64,000 nucleotides of DNA from IMG/VR virus record IMGVR_UViG_3300032304_000826, positions 38,348 through 102,347 of that record. One strand, 5' to 3'. Below, in pieces: positions 33,699 through 42,109 of the stretch. Made by a program: the position numbers and the translations under genes. The notes beneath the pieces were generated by a model. The model was given only the letters and a program-made list of their open reading frames with translations. It ran no database searches and was not told the origin of the DNA. The stretch's first letter is position 1, and each line of letters starts with the position of its first letter. The DNA is from a virus.

Positions 33699-33726
33699 TG
33701 TACTTCTCCTTAGTTTCAGCGAGTTA

Positions 33727-33753
33727 AAAGCACTCCCTATCGGCAAGTGCTCC
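33727..33753. promoter_or_regulatory. CIRCE-like operator (HrcA site) upstream of hsp20
   Basis: AAAGCACTC-N9-AAGTGCTCC versus consensus TTAGCACTC-N9-GAGTGCTAA; just downstream of a minus-strand TGnTACACT. Confidence 0.6.
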
Positions 33754-34069
33754 CAAAGTGTAGCAGCCACTGCCAAAGATTTTGTAATCTAAGTATTCCC
33801 CGATTTTTCCTCCCAAAATAACGAATTGTGACATGCAGCACACAGGCCGGGCCACTGCCTAGCTCAATATGGTCTTGGTAGTCAGTCTCACCTGGCGGCC
33901 AACTGAGGCAAAAAGGCTTAAAGGTGCGGGGGGGTCAAAAGAAGCACTGAACTGAATTTAGTTAGAATTAATGTGAGCGAGTGGTCGTGCCACTCGTAAG
34001 AAATGAGTAGGGCGGTAGCCTGTCTGTCAGACAGTCTATCGCCTTTTTTCGTGCCTTCTTCGTGATGTG

Positions 34070-34141
34070 GATAGGGCAGGGTCAAACCTGCCCTATTCGC
34101 CATGCCTATAACAATGGGCAGTCGGGAGATAACTGTCTCCC
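34070..34141 (+). promoter_or_regulatory. Control region at the start of the plus-strand block
   Basis: ATAGGGCAGG-N6-CCTGCCCTAT inverted repeat, TATAACAAT, then CGGGAGA/TCTCCCG hairpin before the RBS. Confidence 0.45.
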
Positions 34142-34161
34142 GTGTAACGAAAGGAAACCAA

Positions 34162-34710
34162 ATGACTACTCAGTCATTGTTCGACCAGTCCGTAGTGGCT
34201 GCTGCTAATGTCCGTGGTGCTCGTGGCGAGGAGCGTGAAATTGAGCGCCTTGCCAATGAGGCCATAGCCAATGGGTGGGGTGCGCCTATCCCTGCCAGTA
34301 TCTACAGCGACCTTGCTGTAGTTGCCAAGAAGGATGGGACAGAAGTGGTGGAAGTATCACCACTTCAGTTTGCCCACGCCTTCTACTTGGTTCGTACCTA
34401 CGGGTACAAGCCTCGTGATGCCCGCCGTATCGCCAAGCGATTCGGTATGGAGTTGGATGGTGTGTATACATCCGACACAGCACAGGTGGTTCGTGCCATC
34501 ACCACTATGGAAGAGCAATTCGTTGACGATAAGGAATCAGTCCTTATCCCAACCAGCATTGCTGCCATCAAGTCCCGTGTCGCTACGCTTAAGAAGCGTA
34601 TGAAAGACGGGGCTGTATCAGATGCCGACCTTCAACAGTTGGCATCTATAAGCGAAGAGATCCGTGATCTCTCCGTTGCCACCACCCCATCACTGGTGGT
34701 AAGCGCGTAA
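34162..34710 (+). CDS. First gene of the putative early block, unknown function
   Basis: GAAAGGAA RBS precedes ATG 34162 (ORF track starts 34102). Confidence 0.7.
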   Translation: MTTQSLFDQSVVAAANVRGARGEEREIERLANEAIANGWGAPIPASIYSDLAVVAKKDGTEVVEVSPLQFAHAFYLVRTYGYKPRDARRIAKRFGMELDGVYTSDTAQVVRAITTMEEQFVDDKESVLIPTSIAAIKSRVATLKKRMKDGAVSDADLQQLASISEEIRDLSVATTPSLVVSA

Positions 34711-34719
34711 TACTCTCTC

Positions 34720-35070
34720 GGCTACTGCCTTCCTAGCCGCATAGCCTGTGTCAGTCCGACCAGGTTATCGGCTAGGGGGTAGTGCTGTTATCAGGGTATT
34801 AGGGGAAGTCAAGGGCTAAGCCAATAGTCCTTGGCCTCTCAACTCTACACGGTGCTACCTTCCCCGTACCGTGTAGGGCTGAGGGGTTCATACCCCTTAC
34901 ATCAGAAGATACGGCGATACCTGTGGGAATCAGGAGACTGTTAGGCAATCCCGAAGTACACCCTAACCGCTAATGGCACGAAGATAACTACTCTGTTCTG
35001 CCTTCCACAATGGGGGGTGGGTATGCCTATGTGTACCAACACAAACCGTATGCCTGCCCCCCATTTCTCC
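34720..35070 (+). ncRNA. Candidate multi-hairpin structured RNA
   Basis: No ORF; at least four long stems whose imperfections are mostly G-U on the plus strand. Confidence 0.6.
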
Positions 35071-35083
35071 ACCCAGTTAGTCT

Positions 35084-35188
35084 GTGAAAGGCGCATCTGT
35101 TCATCTGTAGGGAGGGTCCTTATAGATCATTGAGTGCTATCAAGCAGGTGCGCCTCTCACTCTCTACCTGAGAGTATGAACTAGGAGG
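35084..35188 (+). ncRNA. Closing-stem cassette 1 with hairpin and RBS
   Basis: GTGAAAGGCGCATCTG pairs with CAGGTGCGCCTCTCAC; then ACTCTC/GAGAGT hairpin and AACTAGGAGG. Confidence 0.65.
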
Positions 35189-35193
35189 TTGCT

Positions 35194-35382
35194 ATGTCCC
35201 ACATAGTTTCAGACGATACAACAGCCCGCCTTATTCCGGGCACAATCGGTACGAAGACAGTCACCATTCCTACCGAAACTTTCTACGAGGTAGTCAATGC
35301 TCTCCGCGATGGTTGCGGATGTGCTAAGTGCTTGGACAATGCCAACACTCTCCTTGTCCACGGGTATACACCTAGGAGGTAA
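35194..35382 (+). CDS. Small hypothetical protein (CGCAKC)
   Basis: AGGAGG RBS. Confidence 0.65.
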   Translation: MSHIVSDDTTARLIPGTIGTKTVTIPTETFYEVVNALRDGCGCAKCLDNANTLLVHGYTPRR

Positions 35383-35384
35383 CT

Positions 35385-35591
35385 ATGGACTGTACCGTCT
35401 GTGGTAACCCCGTCCTACCTGGCAGATGGGATGCTGGTTATCACTATTGCTTTGATCCAAACTGTGCCCACGAATTGCGTGAGCGACAGAAGAAATACGC
35501 CCTGATTCTTATGCCCAAGCAGGGCTTTACCTATGTAGAGGTTGATAGTCCTCACCTGTTAGATGGCAAGTCATCAGGTAGGTCATCTTAG
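35385..35591 (+). CDS. Small Zn-finger protein
   Basis: CTVC..YCFDPNC; AGGAGG RBS. Confidence 0.65.
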   Translation: MDCTVCGNPVLPGRWDAGYHYCFDPNCAHELRERQKKYALILMPKQGFTYVEVDSPHLLDGKSSGRSS

Positions 35592-35598
35592 ATAGATA

Positions 35599-35808
35599 GT
35601 GGAAGGCACATCAAGCACGGACACCATCCAGTTGGTAAGTATTGTTAGAGGCATTTGATGTGGTCTCGTCTAACTTCCGCTTGGCGCAGTTATGTATGTA
35701 ATATTCACATCTGCATACATTGATTTACTCGTCCCCCTGAAAACGGCCGTATAAAGTCCCTCGCTTGGTGTGCCTCTCACCCTCTATCTGAGGGTAATAA
35801 CTAGGAGG
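35599..35808 (+). ncRNA. Closing-stem cassette 2 with hairpin and RBS
   Basis: GTGGAAGGCACATCAAGC pairs with GCTTGGTGTGCCTCTCAC; then ACCCTC/GAGGGT hairpin and AACTAGGAGG. Confidence 0.65.
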
Positions 35809-35814
35809 AAGAAG

Positions 35815-35976
35815 ATGGAAAAAGAATGTGCAGTAATCCATTGCACCAATACCAATCTCGTCTATAGCGGTACTGATGCATTCCAGTTAGGCGGTATCCC
35901 CACCGAAATGTATTGCCGTCCTTGTGCGATCGCTTACTATGTGATCAGCGAAACAATGAAGGCCATCAATGCCTGA
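35815..35976 (+). CDS. Small Cys-containing protein
   Basis: ATG after AGGAGG; CAVIHC..CRPC. Confidence 0.6.
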   Translation: MEKECAVIHCTNTNLVYSGTDAFQLGGIPTEMYCRPCAIAYYVISETMKAINA

Positions 35977-36274
35977 GCGTGCCAACACAAACACGCCCAC
36001 CTACGCCAACATCTGCGCTAGGTTGCGCTATGTACGCCAACTCAAGGGCTGGACGCTTGATGAGGCCGCACAAAAGTCTAATGGCAAGCACAAAGCCAAT
36101 GTAATCGGTTCCTATGAACGCGGACAGCGGTCAATCTCAGTCAAGAAACTCATTGAGCTGGCCCGCCTGTATGACGTACCTGTTACCGATTTCTTTGGCA
36201 TCCCCGATCAAAATGAAAAGTCACAGGCACTCATTGACCTGTTGATTGACCGCCTACACGCACAGAAGGGATAA
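35969..36274 (+). CDS. XRE HTH regulator, BldD N-terminal-domain-like
   Basis: KS.G..KA.V.GSYERG.R..SV..L.ELA..Y.VPV matches the BldD DNA-binding domain pattern. Confidence 0.8.
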   Translation: MPERANTNTPTYANICARLRYVRQLKGWTLDEAAQKSNGKHKANVIGSYERGQRSISVKKLIELARLYDVPVTDFFGIPDQNEKSQALIDLLIDRLHAQKG

Positions 36275-36276
36275 CA

Positions 36277-36525
36277 ATGGACAGACCAATACCGATTGGC
36301 AAAGATCAAGTCAATCATTACTACATCTCCACCGTATTTCTAGGTGAGGACTACAAGCCCCGCGCATACGAGACCATGGTCTTTGAGAATGACGAGGCTA
36401 TCTACGAAGCCCGCTATGAACTTGAATGGGAAGCAAAGATTGGACACATGCACGCTATACATCTAGCGCGTAATGACAAGTTCCTTCCCCGCGAGTCTGC
36501 GCCTCCAACAGCGCAACAACTTTAA
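36277..36525 (+). CDS. Hypothetical protein (ISTVFLG..YETMVF)
   Basis: RBS, coupled ORF. Confidence 0.6.
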   Translation: MDRPIPIGKDQVNHYYISTVFLGEDYKPRAYETMVFENDEAIYEARYELEWEAKIGHMHAIHLARNDKFLPRESAPPTAQQL

Positions 36526-36534
36526 ATGGATGGA

Positions 36535-36786
36535 GGAAGGCAGAGATAGGGTCTGAGCATCTCTACCTGATTCTGCAAGCTGCGCTTCAGGTTCTCCGCC
36601 ACGTATGTATCAAATGGAGAGTGAGCCCCGTGGGCAAATGTTAGAGAGAATGTGCCTACTTGTGCGTGTGACTCCATGAGAAGATTTCTGCAGTGCATTG
36701 CAGCACGCTTCTTTGGTACGTGAAACTGATTCGTTACAGCCTATCTCTGTCTTCCCCTGCCCATTTGGACAGGACAACAAGGGAGG
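36535..36786 (+). ncRNA. Closing-stem cassette 3 with hairpin and RBS
   Basis: GGAAGGCAGAGATAGG pairs with CCTATCTCTGTCTTCC (16 bp, one G-U) around about 190 nt. Confidence 0.65.
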
Positions 36787-36791
36787 ATAAA

Positions 36792-37019
36792 ATGAAAACA
36801 GAAACCTTAACGATTACCATCGCTAAGACTGTTCTCTATAAGCATGAGGATACTCATGTAAAGACAGACGGCAAGTACAGTTGGATCCGCTTCAACAATA
36901 CATCTAGTTGCCCGTTCTGTATCGCAAAGGCAATCCCAATGATTGAGGATAAGCAAGACACCCTCTCATTGGCCCACTACATCAGTGCTAATGCAAAAGC
37001 ATTAGTCGCTGCTAACTAA
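36792..37019 (+). CDS. Hypothetical protein
   Basis: ATG after GGGAGG. Confidence 0.6.
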   Translation: MKTETLTITIAKTVLYKHEDTHVKTDGKYSWIRFNNTSSCPFCIAKAIPMIEDKQDTLSLAHYISANAKALVAAN

Positions 37020-37030
37020 GGAGGCAAATC

Positions 37031-38002
37031 ATGGAAGGTGAGATCATCTTCTACAACGGGTTCAACCTATTGGTTGACCTTATCATCGCGGGTGCTGTGT
37101 TCTACTTCACCCGTCGCTTTATGTACCGAGCAGGTTGGCACGATGGATACAGCGATGGCTTGTCTGATGTTCAAGACGGCCTTGTATACCTGGAAGAACG
37201 AGATGGTGTGCTTGAATGGATACCAAACATCGCTCCAACACAAACAACCACCGACCGCCCCGCTTTATTCGTAGTGCCTGAGGCTAACTAATGATTAGCA
37301 AGAATGGCATACCCGATGATGAGCTGTATGTCATCAAAGTGTACGAAGACGGTACCAACGGCAAGGCAGGCTATTTCGAGTATAACAATGCTCTAGATGC
37401 AGTCAATGCGTTCAATAAGTTCGTTGATCTTGGCGATGCCAAAGAGACACGGGCTGTGTATTTAATCGAGCCCAATGAAAAGATTCACACACGTATGTTC
37501 ATGCGTGGTGAGAAGGGAGTACTGACATCATGAAACGAAAAACAGTCCTAGTTAGTATCTATTATCGTGGAGAAGAGCCTGAGATTGAGGGTCTTGACAC
37601 ATTCTATCTATCTAACGCAATTGAAAGGGCAGTTAAATTAAACAACAAGACAAGTGATGTCTTTGATGTAGCCATAGATGAGACAAAGCCGTGGCTATTC
37701 TCAAATAGTCGTTGGTATACCAAGTACGTATTTAAATTAGCACGCTTATGACTATGCAACGCATCGGTCGTTATGAATTTAACGACAAAGGCACAGCAGT
37801 GTGGGTAGAGACAGATATAGATGTACCAGAGGGGCAAATCATTGTATTTGATGAGTTTCCAACAGGTGCTTGGGCTGACCCTAAGTTCTTATCTAACATA
37901 CTAGACATAATGAATAAGGCGTGCAATGAAAACAAAGACGATATCGAAGACATCCTTATGGATATAGAACTAGAAAAACTTATCTACGATACCAAGAACT
38001 AG
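37031..38002 (+). CDS. Four coupled small hypothetical ORFs (37031-37291 with TM helix, 37291-37533, 37530-37751, 37748-38002)
   Basis: Overlapping stop/start codons, RBSs. Confidence 0.6.
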
Positions 38003-38007
38003 GTAAG

Positions 38008-38081
38008 GCGCTGTTAGCTCAGTTGGTTAGAGCCCCGAACTCATAATTCGGTCGTCGTAGGTTCAAGTCCTACACAGCGCA
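38008..38081 (+). tRNA. tRNA with CAU anticodon (Ile2-like or elongator Met), CCA not encoded
   Basis: GCGCTGT/ACAGCGC acceptor, TAGCTCAGTTGGTTAGAGC D arm, CCGAA-CTCATAA-TTCGG, GTAGG-TTCAAGT-CCTAC. Confidence 0.93.
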
Positions 38082-38234
38082 CGGCACACTTCAAGAGGAG
38101 GGAGTGTCTTTGGTCTGACAAGACCTAAGGTAAAACATGGCCCGTGAGCATCGGGGTATACCTGCTACCTGTCCTGAGCATGACAAGGCTAAACGGCTCA
38201 ACACAAACAAACCCGACACACAGAAAGGCAAACC

Positions 38235-38732
38235 ATGGGAGCAAAAACAAACTCTCTCAAAATCAGGCGACTTGACCTCCTTGAAGCACTTGAGGAACGC
38301 TATGCCGCGTTGACAAAACAAAAAGATGAGTATGAAAAGTTAGACAAAGAGTATAACCTCGCATCTACTAAATACGACAAAGATGTGAAAGCATACGAAA
38401 AGCGAATGGATGACTTCTTACGTGGCTGCACAGTTGGCGGAGAAGTTCATTGGTCTTCAAGCAGTCGTAGATGGGGTAGTGACGAACAGTATTACAGAGT
38501 AGTTTCTGAGGTGCATGTTCCCCACAAAGCTGTGGTTAAAGCTATTGGACCTGAACCTGAACGTCCAACAAGCACACCTACTCCTTACTTTCTACGATCA
38601 CGCATGGGTAGAGGCTATGCAGTAGAGCCTTCAGTCTATGAGTCTGTTTACCAAGCAATCCAGTTGCTACATATGTCAGATGATGAGACCGTCTCAGCAT
38701 CTATGTATCAATTAGCATTGGAAGTATTGTAA
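38235..38732 (+). CDS. Hypothetical coiled-coil protein
   Basis: GAAAGG RBS. Confidence 0.65.
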   Translation: MGAKTNSLKIRRLDLLEALEERYAALTKQKDEYEKLDKEYNLASTKYDKDVKAYEKRMDDFLRGCTVGGEVHWSSSSRRWGSDEQYYRVVSEVHVPHKAVVKAIGPEPERPTSTPTPYFLRSRMGRGYAVEPSVYESVYQAIQLLHMSDDETVSASMYQLALEVL

Positions 38733-39274
38733 TGGAAATAGACTTAGATGGTGTTCGTTGCTATTCTAGCCTCAGCTTAACCTTAACGTTTAAGAAGTGG
38801 GTAATAGTAGGCAAGCATAAGAATGAAGACAGACCATTCCGTGTAGATAGACTAGATGTTCATTGGGATCCCTCTGTAGATCTAGCATACATCCCACCAC
38901 ACATTGGCATTCAAGGCGTGTGGGCTCAAAAAGGTGGTTACAAATGGGGGACACGAGGTAGTAGTTTCCCAGGTTGGCACGGTGGTGGTGGCCAAGAGTC
39001 AATGTCATTTGAGACATTGCCTTCAAGCATTAAGGTGTTCATTTACAACACAGTTATAAATGAAACATTAACATTTGCTGGTGCTTTAGCCCAACAACTA
39101 TCATTACTAACTACAAACAAAGAGTTTATAGTTAACCCAGACCACGTAACAGCTGCAGTAAATGGTGGCGGAGCATTCCTCCCATCTATAAAGCCATCAT
39201 CATTGTATGCACCGTCTAAATGGGAGAATATGGATGTATCTAGATGGTCAGTAGCACGAAAAGAAATAAAATAA
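38732..39274 (+). CDS. Hypothetical protein
   Basis: Coupled ORF. Confidence 0.6.
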   Translation: MEIDLDGVRCYSSLSLTLTFKKWVIVGKHKNEDRPFRVDRLDVHWDPSVDLAYIPPHIGIQGVWAQKGGYKWGTRGSSFPGWHGGGGQESMSFETLPSSIKVFIYNTVINETLTFAGALAQQLSLLTTNKEFIVNPDHVTAAVNGGGAFLPSIKPSSLYAPSKWENMDVSRWSVARKEIK

Positions 39275-39309
39275 TTCCCCCTCCGTTGAATACGACGGGG
39301 ATACCCAAA

Positions 39310-39404
39310 GTTCATATGTGATTGGCCGGTGGGGCCTTGTTATATAGGTCCGGTAACGGAGCATGCTATACGAGTGTGCCTTGAGAAACGTAGCGCATAT
39401 GAAC
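39310..39404 (+). ncRNA. Multi-branch structured element
   Basis: GTTCATATGTG pairs with CGCATATGAAC around two hairpins. Confidence 0.5.
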
Positions 39405-39406
39405 CT

Positions 39407-39505
39407 GCCTGTGGAAGGACCAAGAAGTACACGATAGGTATACCGTTCGACGAACCATGCAACTTATCCTCGTAATTCTGGAGGGTGCAAATCCCTTCAC
39501 AGGCG
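39407..39505 (+). ncRNA. tRNA-like RNA (acceptor and T arm, non-canonical middle)
   Basis: GCCTGTG/CACAGGC 7-bp stem abutting GAGGG-TGCAAAT-CCCTT. Confidence 0.55.
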
Positions 39506-39506
39506 C

Positions 39507-39675
39507 GTTGGGGCAGAGACATAATGATTGGCCAATGTGCGTGGGTATCCTATGTGGACACTATTCCCACTCAGTAACTAATCAAAACACATGAGACTAA
39601 ATGCAATTAAAGCGACACCTCGGGGCAACCCACGTGCGTGCAGGATACCGTTAAACGTGGTATCTCTGTCCCAAC
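39507..39675 (+). ncRNA. Closing-stem cassette 4 (whiB leader)
   Basis: GTTGGGGCAGAGA pairs with TCTCTGTCCCAAC. Confidence 0.6.
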
Positions 39676-39704
39676 ACAAACATTCACACAACATAGGAGG
39701 TTAT

Positions 39705-39998
39705 ATGCCAGTACCAGCAGCGTTACCTAAACCAATCATGGATAACTGGAAATGGCAAGAGGAAGGCCTGTGTCGCTTTGAAAGCCCCGACCTTTTCTTT
39801 TACGATGACAATGAACGCGGTGAAACAAGATCCGCGAGAGATGCATTAGCCGTATCAATTTGTAATAGATGTCCAGTAGTAAATACCTGTCTTGAACACG
39901 CTATCACAGTGCCAGAACGACACGGCATCTGGGGCGGTAAGACACAGAACGAACTAGAGATATTGATTCGTAAACGGAAACGTTCAGCGAATCGATAG
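39705..39998 (+). CDS. whiB: WhiB-family Fe-S regulator (WhiB3/WhiD-like)
   Basis: W.W...C..LFF....ERG..C..CPV...C..HA..GIWGG; ATG after AGGAGG. Confidence 0.92.
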   Translation: MPVPAALPKPIMDNWKWQEEGLCRFESPDLFFYDDNERGETRSARDALAVSICNRCPVVNTCLEHAITVPERHGIWGGKTQNELEILIRKRKRSANR

Positions 39999-40047
39999 TA
40001 AACACGGGAGTGGGAGTTACTAGGTAACGAAAAGTCCCCTCGTTTGC

Positions 40048-40396
40048 TTGAGGCACGGCAGAATGCAGTAGGTTTATTATTTGACCTCTATATTGCTGTA
40101 ACTTAATAGAAAAAGTACTATCACTGTGCGTTATGTGATCTTCTTGTTCAGAGTTATATAAGTGAAACGAAAGTGCACGCTAGCGTAAGCCAAAAAACGT
40201 TTTAAGTATATATACACCTGTCCGAAGATGGACGACAATACCATATTGGAAATTTTGAGGGTCCTAGATGTATATCGATGTGCATCGACGCGTATATGTT
40301 CTATTCAATAAATAACTGTGTTCTGTTCTCAAACCCTCAGGCCATAGCATGTCAGACTAACGGTGCTATGGCTTGAGGGCTCATAACTATAGGAGG
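40048..40396 (+). ncRNA. Closing-stem cassette 5 with 17-bp hairpin and RBS
   Basis: TTGAG..GCAGAATGCAGT pairs with ACTGTGTTCTGT-TCTCAA; CCCTCAGGCCATAGCAT/GTGCTATGGCTTGAGGG; ATAACTATAGGAGG. Confidence 0.6.
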
Positions 40397-40400
40397 AACA

Positions 40401-40592
40401 ATGTCAGACCCATTTGAAGAAGCCGAAAAAATCAAGTACATTGAAGAACAATGTGATGCAGCAAAACTAGTAATAGAAGCAGCAACGGAAGATGATGTGT
40501 TATACGAACTTATATCTGAGTGGACTAAAAACAAAATAGCTTCTTACGAGATGACAATCATAGCCCGTAATAAGTATCTAGACGAAGACTAA
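40401..40592 (+). CDS. Small acidic protein
   Basis: AGGAGG RBS. Confidence 0.6.
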   Translation: MSDPFEEAEKIKYIEEQCDAAKLVIEAATEDDVLYELISEWTKNKIASYEMTIIARNKYLDED

Positions 40593-40600
40593 CCTCCCCG

Positions 40601-40641
40601 GCGTGAGTGGCACACTTTGAGGTTCGAGTCCTCTACACGCA
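40601..40641 (+). ncRNA. tRNA minihelix-like element (acceptor and T arm only)
   Basis: GCGTG..GAGG-TTCGAGT-CCTC..CACGC-A with a canonical T loop. Confidence 0.5.
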
Positions 40642-40699
40642 CGGCGGGCGACTACATTGGGTAGTTGCCTTAGCTGCAAAGAAAGTGGAAGGACAGATT

Positions 40700-42109
40700 A
40701 TGAAAATAGCTGTTTTCGTAGAAACGTATACGCCGACTATGGGAGCTGATCATCGTCAAGTAATGATGATTCCTCATAACGACACAGTCCGTGTCTTTTC
40801 TCGTTTGAGCGATGGCAATAAAGGTTATGGCAATCGCTGGGATGAATCAGACATAGAAACTGTAGTGAACGCTATGGACTCAAGTGAAACCATCACTTGT
40901 ATTCCATCAGGTGTTCGACTCACTGCTAAAGATATTGAGGCGCTTGACCTTAAAGGTTATGCACCAGTCCTCATGACTAAAGCGGTCAACGCACACCTTA
41001 AGTCACTACCGTTTGATGAAGAGACAGACGCTGCAGAGCGTATCTGTGCTCTTTATCAAGACGTATCTGTTCAGAGTTCTAGCCTTGAAGATCTAATCAT
41101 TGATCTTCGTAGCCAGGCTCCGGCATCACCGTTCCTTCCGCAGTCTGCTTCAACACAAACATCCACGGCCAATAACCTTGATGAACTACCTCGTGTAGCA
41201 CTCGCAAGTATCCCCCCAATGGATCGCGCTAAAGCCTATATCAGTCGTGACATCGTAGGTATTCAAGACCTCGAAGTTTACGACAAGGCTCGCGCTAACA
41301 AGTTTGATGTGCTTATCTACGGGCCAACCGGTCCAGGTAAGACATCATCCGTAGTTGCATGGGCTGCATCACGGAAGCTACGTATGGCAACTGTATCTGG
41401 TAACGCTGCACTCGAACCAAGCCAACTCATCGGTAAGTATATTCCCGATGGCAAAGGTGGCTTTGTATGGATTGACGGCCCAGTAACAGACGTTGTACGT
41501 AATGGCGGTGTTCTATGTCTTGATGAGGTTAACTTCATCAGTCCTAAGATCTATACCGTCTTGTATTCGTTGCTTGATGACCGCCGTTGTTTAATTCTTC
41601 TCGACCATATGGGCGAGACTGTAGAGGCTCATCCAGACCTCACAATCTTTGCGACTATGAATCCAAACTACATTGGCACTACGCCTTTGAACTTTGCATT
41701 CCGCAATCGCTATGTCGTACAAATCCCTTGGGACTATGACGATAAGGTCGAAGACAAGCTTGTGAAGTCACAGGCACTCAAGATTCTAAAGAATCAATTG
41801 CGTGCTGAGGCTAACAAGGGTGAGTTCGAGACACCAATCTCAACTAACATGCTGATGGAGTTCGAAAAGCTCGTCAAGGTGTTCAGCTTTGAGTTTGCAG
41901 TTGAGAACTTCATTGCCCACTTCGAACTAGAAGAACAAGACAAGGTGCGCCTTGTATTCACTACACATGAATACAATCTGAAGTCTGATTTTGAACTAGT
42001 TGAAATACTAGATCAAGATAAGGGTGAAGATAGTGCTGGCCTCGGAGAAGGCATTATTGCCGAGGTTGAGAACTGGTTGACATCAAACAACACTCCAACT
42101 AATCCATAA
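40700..42109 (+). CDS. MoxR/CbbQ/CobS-type AAA+ ATPase
   Basis: GPTGPGKT, WIDGPV, LCLDEVN, ATMNP, AFRNRY; start reassigned to ATG 40700. Confidence 0.88.
   Translation: MKIAVFVETYTPTMGADHRQVMMIPHNDTVRVFSRLSDGNKGYGNRWDESDIETVVNAMDSSETITCIPSGVRLTAKDIEALDLKGYAPVLMTKAVNAHLKSLPFDEETDAAERICALYQDVSVQSSSLEDLIIDLRSQAPASPFLPQSASTQTSTANNLDELPRVALASIPPMDRAKAYISRDIVGIQDLEVYDKARANKFDVLIYGPTGPGKTSSVVAWAASRKLRMATVSGNAALEPSQLIGKYIPDGKGGFVWIDGPVTDVVRNGGVLCLDEVNFISPKIYTVLYSLLDDRRCLILLDHMGETVEAHPDLTIFATMNPNYIGTTPLNFAFRNRYVVQIPWDYDDKVEDKLVKSQALKILKNQLRAEANKGEFETPISTNMLMEFEKLVKVFSFEFAVENFIAHFELEEQDKVRLVFTTHEYNLKSDFELVEILDQDKGEDSAGLGEGIIAEVENWLTSNNTPTNP

Follow-up and report, generated by a model that had tools for sequence, protein, structure and literature searches.

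Closing-stem RNA modules with exchangeable interiors ahead of early genes of an uncultured actinobacterial phage

Several early genes of an uncultured actinobacterial phage of about 102 kb are preceded by a closing stem with an exchangeable middle, and according to our analysis this arrangement is largely real and has not been described before. The modules combine a conserved, covarying and strand-specific structure with two competing folds and with interiors that are exchanged among phages. We tentatively regard them as cis-acting RNA modules of the long early transcript. We infer from their structure that the early message is most likely cut and capped at them, a reading that we put forward with some reserve. 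The analysed window, a stretch of 64,000 nt, contains five intergenic regions (cassettes 1-5, Table 1) that a preliminary description had presented as one family of stem-bracketed RNAs; its coordinates and arms agree with the sequence.

Table 1. Positions of the cassette features in the analysed window.
Feature	Position	Strand	Details
Cassette 1, 5' flank CCAGTTAG	35073..35080	+	may pair with CTACCTGA (35164-35171), giving P1ext, an outward stem extension
Cassette 1, closing stem P1	35084..35160	+	arms 35084-35100 (5') and 35144-35160 (3'); 82.2 bits with model R1; interior (type A) 35101-35143
Cassette 1, hairpin P2, ACTCTC-TACCT-GAGAGT	35159..35175	+	adjoins P1, no linker; then ribosome-binding site AGGAGG 35183-35188, start codon 35194
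Cassette 2, 5' flank TTAGATAG	35589..35596	+	pairs with CTATCTGA (35784-35791; P1ext); upstream stop codon TAG 35589-35591
Cassette 2, closing stem P1	35599..35780	+	arms 35599-35616 (5') and 35763-35780 (3'); 55.6 bits with model R1
Cassette 2, hairpin P2, ACCCTC-TATCT-GAGGGT	35779..35795	+	then ribosome-binding site 35803-35808, start codon 35815
Cassette 3	36521..36773	+	5' flank TTTAAATGG 36521-36529; stem 36532-36550 with 36740-36758; interior 36551-36739; start codon 36792
Cassette 3, alternative hairpin	36756..36773	+	its CCATTTGGA (36761-36769) pairs with the 5' flank
Cassette 4	39505..39677	+	closing stem 13-24 bp, core 39507-39519 with 39663-39675; 3' arm continues into CAACACAAAC (39672-39681); WhiB gene start 39705
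Cassette 5 (as proposed)	40048..40332	+	stem in two short halves (6 bp, 5 bp) with a 5-nt bulge between them
16-bp hairpin	40334..40379	+	directly before ribosome-binding site 40391-40396 of gene 40401-40592

In the thermodynamic ensemble, pair probabilities of the closing stems lie at 0.87-1.0 in cassettes 1-4, whose longest long-range helices measure 16, 15, 16 and 24 bp, respectively. Among 150 coding-sense control windows of 250 nt each, helices of at least 15 bp occurred in 4% and of at least 13 bp in 10%. The closing stem proposed for cassette 5 is not supported. Its halves have pair probabilities of 0.23-0.44, its longest helix (10 bp) is at background level, the minimum-energy fold uses other pairs, and the stem is invariant among the only relatives carrying it. 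The claim of long-range closing stems stands for cassettes 1-4 and is doubtful for cassette 5. By whole-region folding z-score, cassette 1 alone is strong (-5.95), the values of cassettes 2-4 being unremarkable (-0.8 to -1.2). Matches to a 12-mer arm pattern, with two mismatches allowed, occur in the window at chance level.

Cassettes 1 and 2 are clear paralogues, present as two copies per genome and belonging to a family of 29 distinct copies from related phage and metagenome contigs, all 29 of which share the identical stem fold. All 494 stem cells are paired, against 31-69% in slid controls, and compensatory changes are seen at 8 of the 19 pairs. None of 500 shuffles reached the covariation score of 0.377 (0.189 in shuffles). 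Stem position 5 is mismatched in 26/26 sequences (A-C, C-C or U-C, never paired), with A-C in both cassettes 1 and 2. The remaining non-canonical stem cells are G-U on the sense strand throughout (34 cells, no A-C), so that the preponderance of plus-strand G-U noted earlier in the window holds family-wide. In keeping with this strand asymmetry, the covariance model scores about 80 bits on the sense strand versus about 30 bits on the antisense strand. The compensatory change between the P2 hairpins of cassettes 1 and 2 (ACTCTC/GAGAGT versus ACCCTC/GAGGGT) likewise holds for 26 of 26 members. Together with covariation in cassettes 3 and 4, these observations strongly support the earlier suggestion that the closing stems are selected at the RNA level.

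From the outside inward, the helix of cassettes 1 and 2 consists of an outer helix of 7-8 bp, a 3x3 internal loop, 4 bp, the fixed 1x1 mismatch and 11-12 bp, summing to about 27 bp; in the cassette 1 copy the outer extension has one central mismatch. The inner helix by itself is 16 bp, which is short compared with a classical RNase III site. The interior of cassette 1 contains two small hairpins, and the 146-nt interior of cassette 2 is absent from every other element fetched. All copies are oriented in the direction in which the genes are read, and in nearly all of them the 3' arm is followed by a ribosome-binding site and a start codon no more than about 35 nt away.

The family model R1 (stem GTGRAAG...CTCTCAC, mismatch at position 5, then a hairpin) is matched by cassettes 1 and 2 but not by any of cassettes 3-5, even with the threshold relaxed to E<=10. 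Cassette 3 nevertheless repeats the design of cassettes 1 and 2 in other letters, including both competing folds, with a helix of about 30 bp and 9 of 10 letters at the arm base in common. In one relative (L016), its stem base, hairpin and ribosome-binding site are kept, while the upper stem differs yet still pairs, and the interior differs as well. The RNA enclosed by cassette 4 is about 145 nt long and has blocks conserved in distant relatives; no hairpin follows this cassette. At the position of the hairpin behind cassette 5, two distant relatives carry a differently sequenced hairpin.

The supposed relatedness of all 5' arms is thus clear for cassettes 1 and 2 and extends to the arm base of cassette 3, but the covariance model misses cassettes 3-5, and with the doubtful stem of cassette 5 the five regions are not one family; the term is valid for the architecture only. 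Given two copies of the cassette 1/2 type per genome and no hairpin behind cassette 4, they do not constitute a single uniform punctuation system. The modular layout itself is genuine, consisting of a clamp, a swappable interior and then a hairpin and ribosome-binding site, and the latter two are present in folds and sequence behind cassettes 1, 2, 3 and 5, as had been proposed. None of the Rfam 15 covariance models matched a cassette (whole window at gathering scores; 33700-40800 at E<=5), so that no existing Rfam family can be assigned to any of them. The sole match was a tRNA-Met at 38008-38082.

A feature that was not part of the preliminary description is the conserved 5' flank, which can lengthen the stem to about 27-30 bp in competition with the hairpin just before the ribosome-binding site. 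The flank ATCAGGTAG is conserved even where it codes for the end of the upstream protein, and seven pairs between it and CTAYCTG are kept in 22-26 of 26 sequences. For cassette 1 the extended and hairpin folds are isoenergetic (-49.3 and -49.5 kcal/mol), and for cassette 2, with the flank included, the extended stem is the minimum-energy fold (-70.9 versus -69.3 kcal/mol). The outer helix is backed by conserved complementarity and one-sided changes only, double compensatory changes being absent from the main alignment, and one variant copy (L040 6566) is without it. A P2-type hairpin is retained, with altered sequences, in variant copies.

We posit that these features best fit a processing and stabilising signal resembling the RNase III sites of phage T7, a reading that we hold only tentatively. 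The sequences flanking the intergenic insert would form a long irregular helix, which a double-strand-specific host nuclease, most likely RNase III, would cut. The upstream and downstream messages would thereby be parted from each other and from the insert with its stem cap. After the cut, the outer helix may release its 3' strand to refold as P2, 3-15 nt ahead of the ribosome-binding site, and the 5' end of the downstream message would be protected in this way. RNase III is not encoded by the phage itself; it was found in an actinobacterial control genome.

The same two folds might instead serve, without cleavage, as a translation-coupled switch, in which a ribosome reaching the end of the upstream gene opens the outer helix and the clamp base, and the flip between long helix and hairpin tunes initiation of the next gene or local RNA lifetime. 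Since the upstream stop codon often lies within the 5' strand of the helix (TAG in cassette 2 and TAA in cassette 3, both in the outer helix, and TGA inside GTGAAAG in four slot-2 copies of relatives), and the two folds are equal in energy, such a ribosome-driven switch fits this part of the evidence equally well. We nevertheless consider it unlikely. Slot-1 copies, cassette 1 included, follow a long untranslated leader without an upstream gene, and the ribosome-binding site is unpaired in the extended and hairpin folds alike, so that no obvious on/off effect on initiation is expected.

Among the interiors of the cassette 1/2 family, 17 unrelated types (26-150 nt) can be distinguished, with no motif common to them, which bears out their proposed lack of mutual relationship. 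Interior types move between slots and phage lineages; a type found in slot 1 of one phage may occupy slot 2 of a close relative, and types recur between arms differing by compensatory changes. The absence of a common motif would suit an insulating clamp, whose stem packs an untranslated insert away from Rho termination, single-strand nucleases and the neighbouring ribosome-binding site, the interiors being functionless, tolerated passengers. This is also consistent with the clamp of one relative, which is a plain hairpin with a 6-nt loop, and with the lack of a convincing antisense target for the interiors in the phage's own genome; both also weaken the cargo-RNA function previously suggested for them. 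Passengers without function are, however, difficult to reconcile with interior types that are 95-100% identical between arms differing at several positions, with compensatory changes in the inner hairpin of type A, or with the interior of cassette 4 being conserved in distant phages, and insulation leaves the position 5 mismatch, the conserved flank and the competing hairpin unexplained. We therefore judge it quite unlikely. There is a slim chance that the clamps are a release platform for interchangeable small phage RNAs, with interiors cut out in stem-capped form (as decoy, antisense or counter-defence RNAs) and RNA cassettes swapped between the two slots and among lineages, similar at the RNA level to the swapping of gene cassettes by integrons.

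In comparison with the two closest relatives, homology is interrupted at the element borders (35198, 35768 and 39588/39664). Phages about 90% identical to one another carry different interiors and different genes between the two copies. Under the processing reading, the conserved arms may double as DNA-level recombination joints at which interiors and neighbouring genes are exchanged between related phages. The same breaks, and a G-T asymmetry that is also compatible with folded single-stranded DNA, could point to a mainly DNA-level element, in which arms and hairpin act as recombination linkers shuffling gene modules in a PeSL-like (promoter-early stem-loop) manner, or as a single-stranded fold like integron attC. 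This is improbable, as neither a tyrosine recombinase nor a PeSL-type promoter or terminator is present, the elements keep a constant orientation and spacing relative to the ribosome-binding site, and compensatory changes preserve pairing across up to 150 nt, for which a double-stranded recombination linker has no need.

The cassettes sit between co-oriented genes, and their intergenic regions are equally or more conserved (88-97% identity) than genes (87-92%). The finding of no plus-strand terminator-like site within cassettes 1-5 and of promoter-like matches fewer than in shuffles, with none at cassettes 1 and 2, is consistent with a polycistronic message. A polymerase-modifying antitermination RNA like put of phage HK022, located behind the early promoter and a second time behind the first genes, would account for the two copies in each genome, of which the first lies in the early operon leader, and for a compact RNA of several helices, but is very improbable given that no terminator-like sites lie downstream of the elements, that put RNA functions in both stems while the apical part varies freely here, and that the tight link to the ribosome-binding site would be left unexplained.

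If the processing reading is true, abundant uncultured phages of actinobacteria would, as a group, organise their early message by a two-state RNA device, in which a long helix across the insert would serve for cutting and a hairpin from one strand of this helix would protect the product. Covariation defines the element well; it is compact and has a fixed mismatch as its diagnostic mark. Candidates for new phage small RNAs would be the exchangeable interiors as well as the conserved RNA of cassette 4.

Among known systems, integron attC sites and gene cassettes are accompanied by IntI and core sites, whereas PF00589 (tyrosine recombinase) is absent from the complete 102-kb genome, the control genomes being positive. 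Miniature inverted-repeat elements such as Correia have a conserved interior and many dispersed copies, as opposed to 17 unrelated interiors and two copies per genome at fixed places. In T4-type phages, the PeSL are short intergenic units of conserved sequence, and small early genes have been swapped, acquired and lost at them among close relatives (PMC2839356). The cassettes are likewise short conserved intergenic exchange points, but a PeSL consists of a sigma-70 promoter and a terminator stem-loop, and the cassettes show neither signature and pair across an insert. Their assignment to PeSL is ruled out by the scarcity of promoter-like sites described above and by the absence of a T-run behind the cassette hairpins.

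The ESAS/SAS of Cluster K mycobacteriophages are actinophage elements without assigned function among non-structural genes, with imperfect inverted repeats of about 17 bp and a variable spacer just upstream of the start motif (PMC3203893, PMC12699233). The cassettes share the actinophage origin, the non-structural gene regions and imperfect repeats with a variable spacer near the translation start. They differ in the spacer (26-150 nt in the 29 copies, 6 nt in one relative, versus mostly 4-13 bp in ESAS), so that their repeats of 16-17 bp do not have the ESAS form of 17-bp repeats around 4-13 bp, as well as in copies per genome (two of the cassette 1/2 type versus 11-19 SAS) and in the added hairpin and 5' flank. 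The 13-bp SAS word GGGATAGGAGCCC is absent, with one two-mismatch match on the wrong strand versus 0.94 expected by chance. Processing stems of rRNA and the intervening sequences of 23S rRNA also combine a long-range helix and conserved base with a variable or excisable interior that is removed by RNase III; they lie in rRNA operons, whereas the cassette helix lies between phage protein genes and is coupled to a ribosome-binding site.

The closest counterparts are the RNase III signals of T7 (R0.3-R1.3, with R1.1 as the model substrate), which are simple hairpins of about 60 nt. Host RNase III cleaves the T7 early precursor of about 7,000 nt at five sites (PMC4858673). Like the cassettes, these signals are irregular helices that contain an internal loop and are related in sequence; they lie between cistrons of an early operon transcribed by the host, as the cassettes presumably do. 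Cleavage at the cassettes would plausibly release messages of one or two cistrons with hairpin ends, as in T7. A T7-type irregular helix, about two turns long and interrupted by an internal loop, is found in cassettes 1 and 2 (~27 bp) and 3 (~30 bp). Unlike the T7 sites, to which they have no sequence similarity, the cassettes span a 26-190-nt insert that varies among copies and carry a second, competing hairpin before the ribosome-binding site. Host-nuclease punctuation as in T7 would, if our reading is true, extend to actinophages with a refolding step undescribed for T7, and might bear on the unexplained ESAS repeats.

The source of the window is an IMG/VR virus record of 102,347 bp that is complete and has direct terminal repeats. 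The window takes up its right 64 kb and carries a row of small plus-strand genes in which six intergenic gaps of 107-483 nt each fall within 6 kb. An actinobacterial host is likely, because among phages in culture only those of Gordonia and Brevibacterium gave remote protein matches (~30% identity). At the nucleotide level, cultured phages gave no match to the cassette region or to the 61-nt core. A query with the protein encoded 3' of cassette 3 matched the two close relatives only. No terminator-like sites were found on the plus strand within cassettes 1-5, promoter-like matches in the region are rarer than in shuffles, and a genome search that had no positive control yielded no T7-type RNA polymerase.

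Cassettes 1 and 2 belong to a motif family that is a real, well supported and hitherto undescribed RNA with an unusual, exchangeable interior and a two-state base. Exact-pattern scans with the 3' core over viral contigs and metagenomes gathered 29 distinct elements, all of which adopt the common closing stem. In an alignment of 26 sequences, the 494 cells of its 19 pairs are standard without exception and eight pairs show compensatory changes, which bears out the RNA-level selection proposed in the preliminary description. The covariation score was 0.377 versus 0.189 in shuffles (0 of 500 as high), and sliding one strand as a control brought pairing down to 31-69%. Stem position 5 is always unpaired (A-C in 24 sequences, C-C and U-C in one each), and the 34 non-Watson-Crick cells outside this position are all G-U on the sense strand, with no A-C among them, in keeping with the G-U bias noted earlier. 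A covariance model of this family (R1) scored ~80 bits on the sense and ~30 bits on the antisense strand. By this model the window and the majority of related genomes each have exactly two copies, 0.3-1 kb apart. Every copy follows the direction of gene reading and a ribosome-binding site and start codon lie at most ~35 nt past the 3' arm in nearly all copies. Rfam holds nothing for cassettes 1 and 2, also in a wider scan that returned only tRNA; the preliminary description had likewise matched no named RNA family.

Three further pattern matches were devoid of a 5' arm. Two of them (L015 and L018), GC-rich metagenome sequences, were treated as chance, and the third (L013) was later picked up by the covariance model at 56.5 bits. 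A scan of species genomes with the 22-nt core returned two matches at one orthologous intergenic chromosomal locus of Thermoleophilia metagenome-assembled genomes. They were rejected as family members, since ~4 matches to 19 fixed letters are expected by chance in 596 Gb.

The base of the element holds a layer that the preliminary description had missed. The stem is directly preceded on its 5' side by (T)ATCAGGTAG plus 3 nt, a conserved flank that is retained even when it codes for the C-terminus of the upstream protein. It is complementary to CTAYCTGA, which comprises the last letter of the 5' strand of the small downstream hairpin, its loop and two letters of the 3' strand; seven such pairs are present in 22-26 of the 26 sequences. 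Because the flank pairs with hairpin letters, the two folds, an irregular helix of ~27 bp or the inner stem plus hairpin, are mutually exclusive. They are isoenergetic in cassette 1 (-49.3 and -49.5 kcal/mol), and the long helix is favoured in cassette 2 (-70.9 versus -69.3 kcal/mol). The pairs of the outer helix lie across a 3x3 internal loop, in which the middle position is unpaired throughout; support for this helix consists of conserved complementarity and one-sided changes, with no double covariation. Among variant copies, one retains both folds in new letters and another is without the outer helix.

Upstream of the first clamp, most relatives have a leader element ending in CTGTTATCAGGTAG that immediately adjoins it. 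Here and in close kin of this phage, the two are separated by ~290 nt; this ORF-free, strongly folding segment is 96-97% conserved and appears to be inserted within a CAGG/TAG junction.

The interiors enclosed by the stem are indeed mutually unrelated, as they had looked in the cassettes: the 29 elements hold 17 types, 26-150 nt long, that share no motif. Three genomes of ~90% identity carry the interior types A/B, A/C and D/A in their two element slots, and type A occupies slot 1 in this phage and slot 2 in L003, a related contig. Several types, 95-100% identical from copy to copy, recur inside arms that are set apart by compensatory changes, and also in other slots and other lineages. Type A has an inner hairpin with compensatory changes of its own. 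One second-slot copy, on contig L024, is a plain hairpin of 14-16 bp that has a loop of 6 nt and lacks the mismatch; the usual small hairpin comes after it. The clamp is thus possible without any interior. No credible antisense target of the interiors was found in the phage genome; the sole 16-nt match (E 0.004) was rejected for lack of conservation in the two closest relatives. Close relatives differ in cassette 3 by indels of a single base, which speaks against hidden genes in the interiors. The right half of CIRCE (GAGTGCTAA) in type-A interiors of relatives was judged a coincidence because the left half is missing.

All five regions and their arms have the position and sequence first described, and the account of cassettes 1-4 was largely right. 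Pair probabilities from the thermodynamic ensemble are 0.87-1.0 for the cassette 1-4 closing stems and only 0.23-0.44 for the two halves of the cassette 5 stem. The longest long-range helices measure 16, 15, 16 and 24 bp in cassettes 1-4 and 10 bp in cassette 5, and just 4% of 150 coding-sense control windows have one of at least 15 bp. Whole-region folding z-scores of cassettes 2-4 are weak, and the signal therefore lies in specific helices rather than in overall stability. The proposed family of five holds for cassettes 1 and 2; because model R1 misses cassettes 3-5, it is reduced to a shared architecture of cassettes 1-3 at best, with cassette 4 as a looser relative, and uniting all five is beyond the evidence.

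Cassette 3 repeats the design of cassettes 1 and 2 in different letters. Its flank TTTAAATGG, in which the upstream gene has its stop codon, pairs with CCATTTGGA in the downstream hairpin to give a helix of ~30 bp. Two related contigs (L016 and L032) retain the stem base, hairpin and ribosome-binding site, with the upper stem swapped for another complementary arm pair and an unrelated interior. The closing stem of cassette 4 is conserved with compensatory changes in five further phages, one of which, a distant genome, has a 25-bp version. Its interior is absent from Rfam and looks like a genuine structured RNA, a candidate for a new one, because blocks such as the hairpin ACACCTCGGGG-AA-CCCACGTG are ~70% identical in three distant phages (L010, L034 and L022); segments between blocks vary, and the two closest relatives have the 3' half replaced. 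No hairpin follows cassette 4, and its 3' arm continues into the word CAACACAAAC. A promoter-like match (TTCACA, 18 nt, CATAAT) overlies the 5' arm; relatives conserve its CATAATGATT block but not the first hexamer. For cassette 5 the closing stem is unsupported, the minimum-energy fold being made of other pairs. The 16-bp hairpin is real; it precedes the ribosome-binding site, where two distant relatives carry hairpins of other sequence. The same cassette contains a possible micro-ORF of 15 codons with GAGGG six bases 5' of the ATG; its two differences among close relatives (one synonymous, one conservative) are far too few to judge.

Features of the cassette region and of related sequences (window positions unless a contig is named)
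Feature	Position	Strand	Remark
Small-gene run	34.1-47 kb	+
HTH protein and AAA_5/vWA pair	within 34.1-47 kb	+	members of the run
WhiB-family protein	39705-39998	+	within the run
Leader segment	34800-35083
Cassette 1	35084-35160	+
Cassette 2	35599-35780	+
Cassette 3	36521-36773	+
Antisense match	36578-36593		rejected
Promoter-like match	39496-39525
Cassette 4	39505-39677	+
Cassette 4 interior	39520-39662	+
Cassette 5	40048-40332	+
Micro-ORF	40268-40315
tRNA-like minihelix	40601-40645
CAACACAAAC	1844, 10409, 14774, 21850, 27431, 35037, 35983, 37236, 38199, 39672, 41151, 43822, 45472, 46695		4 more copies in the genome outside the window
Plain-hairpin copy	L024 58-120	-
22-nt core, CTCTCAC-hairpin	L044 3957-3978; L045 2347-2368		no 5' arm, no Rfam match

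Two other sequence features were observed. The word CAACACAAAC occurs 18 times in the 102-kb genome, mostly after C or T and always along the local gene direction, within and between genes (chance expectation in the window, ~5 matches at one mismatch). It is retained in differing reading frames in relatives and looks like a directional signal. In the AAA_5 gene leader there is a tRNA-like minihelix, in which GCGTG/CACGC stacks on a GAGG-TTCGAGT-CCTC arm and D and anticodon arms are absent; it is 94-95% conserved among close relatives and was called by neither ARAGORN nor Rfam.

The reading as a putative processing and stabilising signal fits these data best: the sense-strand helix, two to three turns long, contains an internal loop and a fixed mismatch, it has an intercistronic place in the early operon, and the hairpin can form only after release of the outer helix. 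Cleavage would be by host RNase III, since a genome search found no RNase III gene of the phage's own. T7 is the precedent: the host enzyme cuts its early precursor at five sites (PMC4858673). A serious rival is a switch driven by ribosomes, as cassettes 2 and 3 and four relatives have stop codons within the 5' strand. A role as DNA only, antitermination and a clamp for insulation alone are less likely. The earlier idea that such processing releases the interiors as cargo RNAs goes beyond the evidence.

Among described actinophage features, the ESAS/SAS repeats of Cluster K come closest; their function is still unknown (PMC3203893, PMC12699233). The elements described here lack their defining features, and the SAS word is absent. 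PeSL cassettes, which have been described as short homologies for recombination (PMC2839356), have a promoter/terminator signature, whereas our elements are without either. The borders of the elements are where homology with the closest relatives breaks, and no tyrosine recombinase or integrase was found in the genome; ordinary recombination therefore probably uses the arms as short homologies, as in PeSL cassettes.
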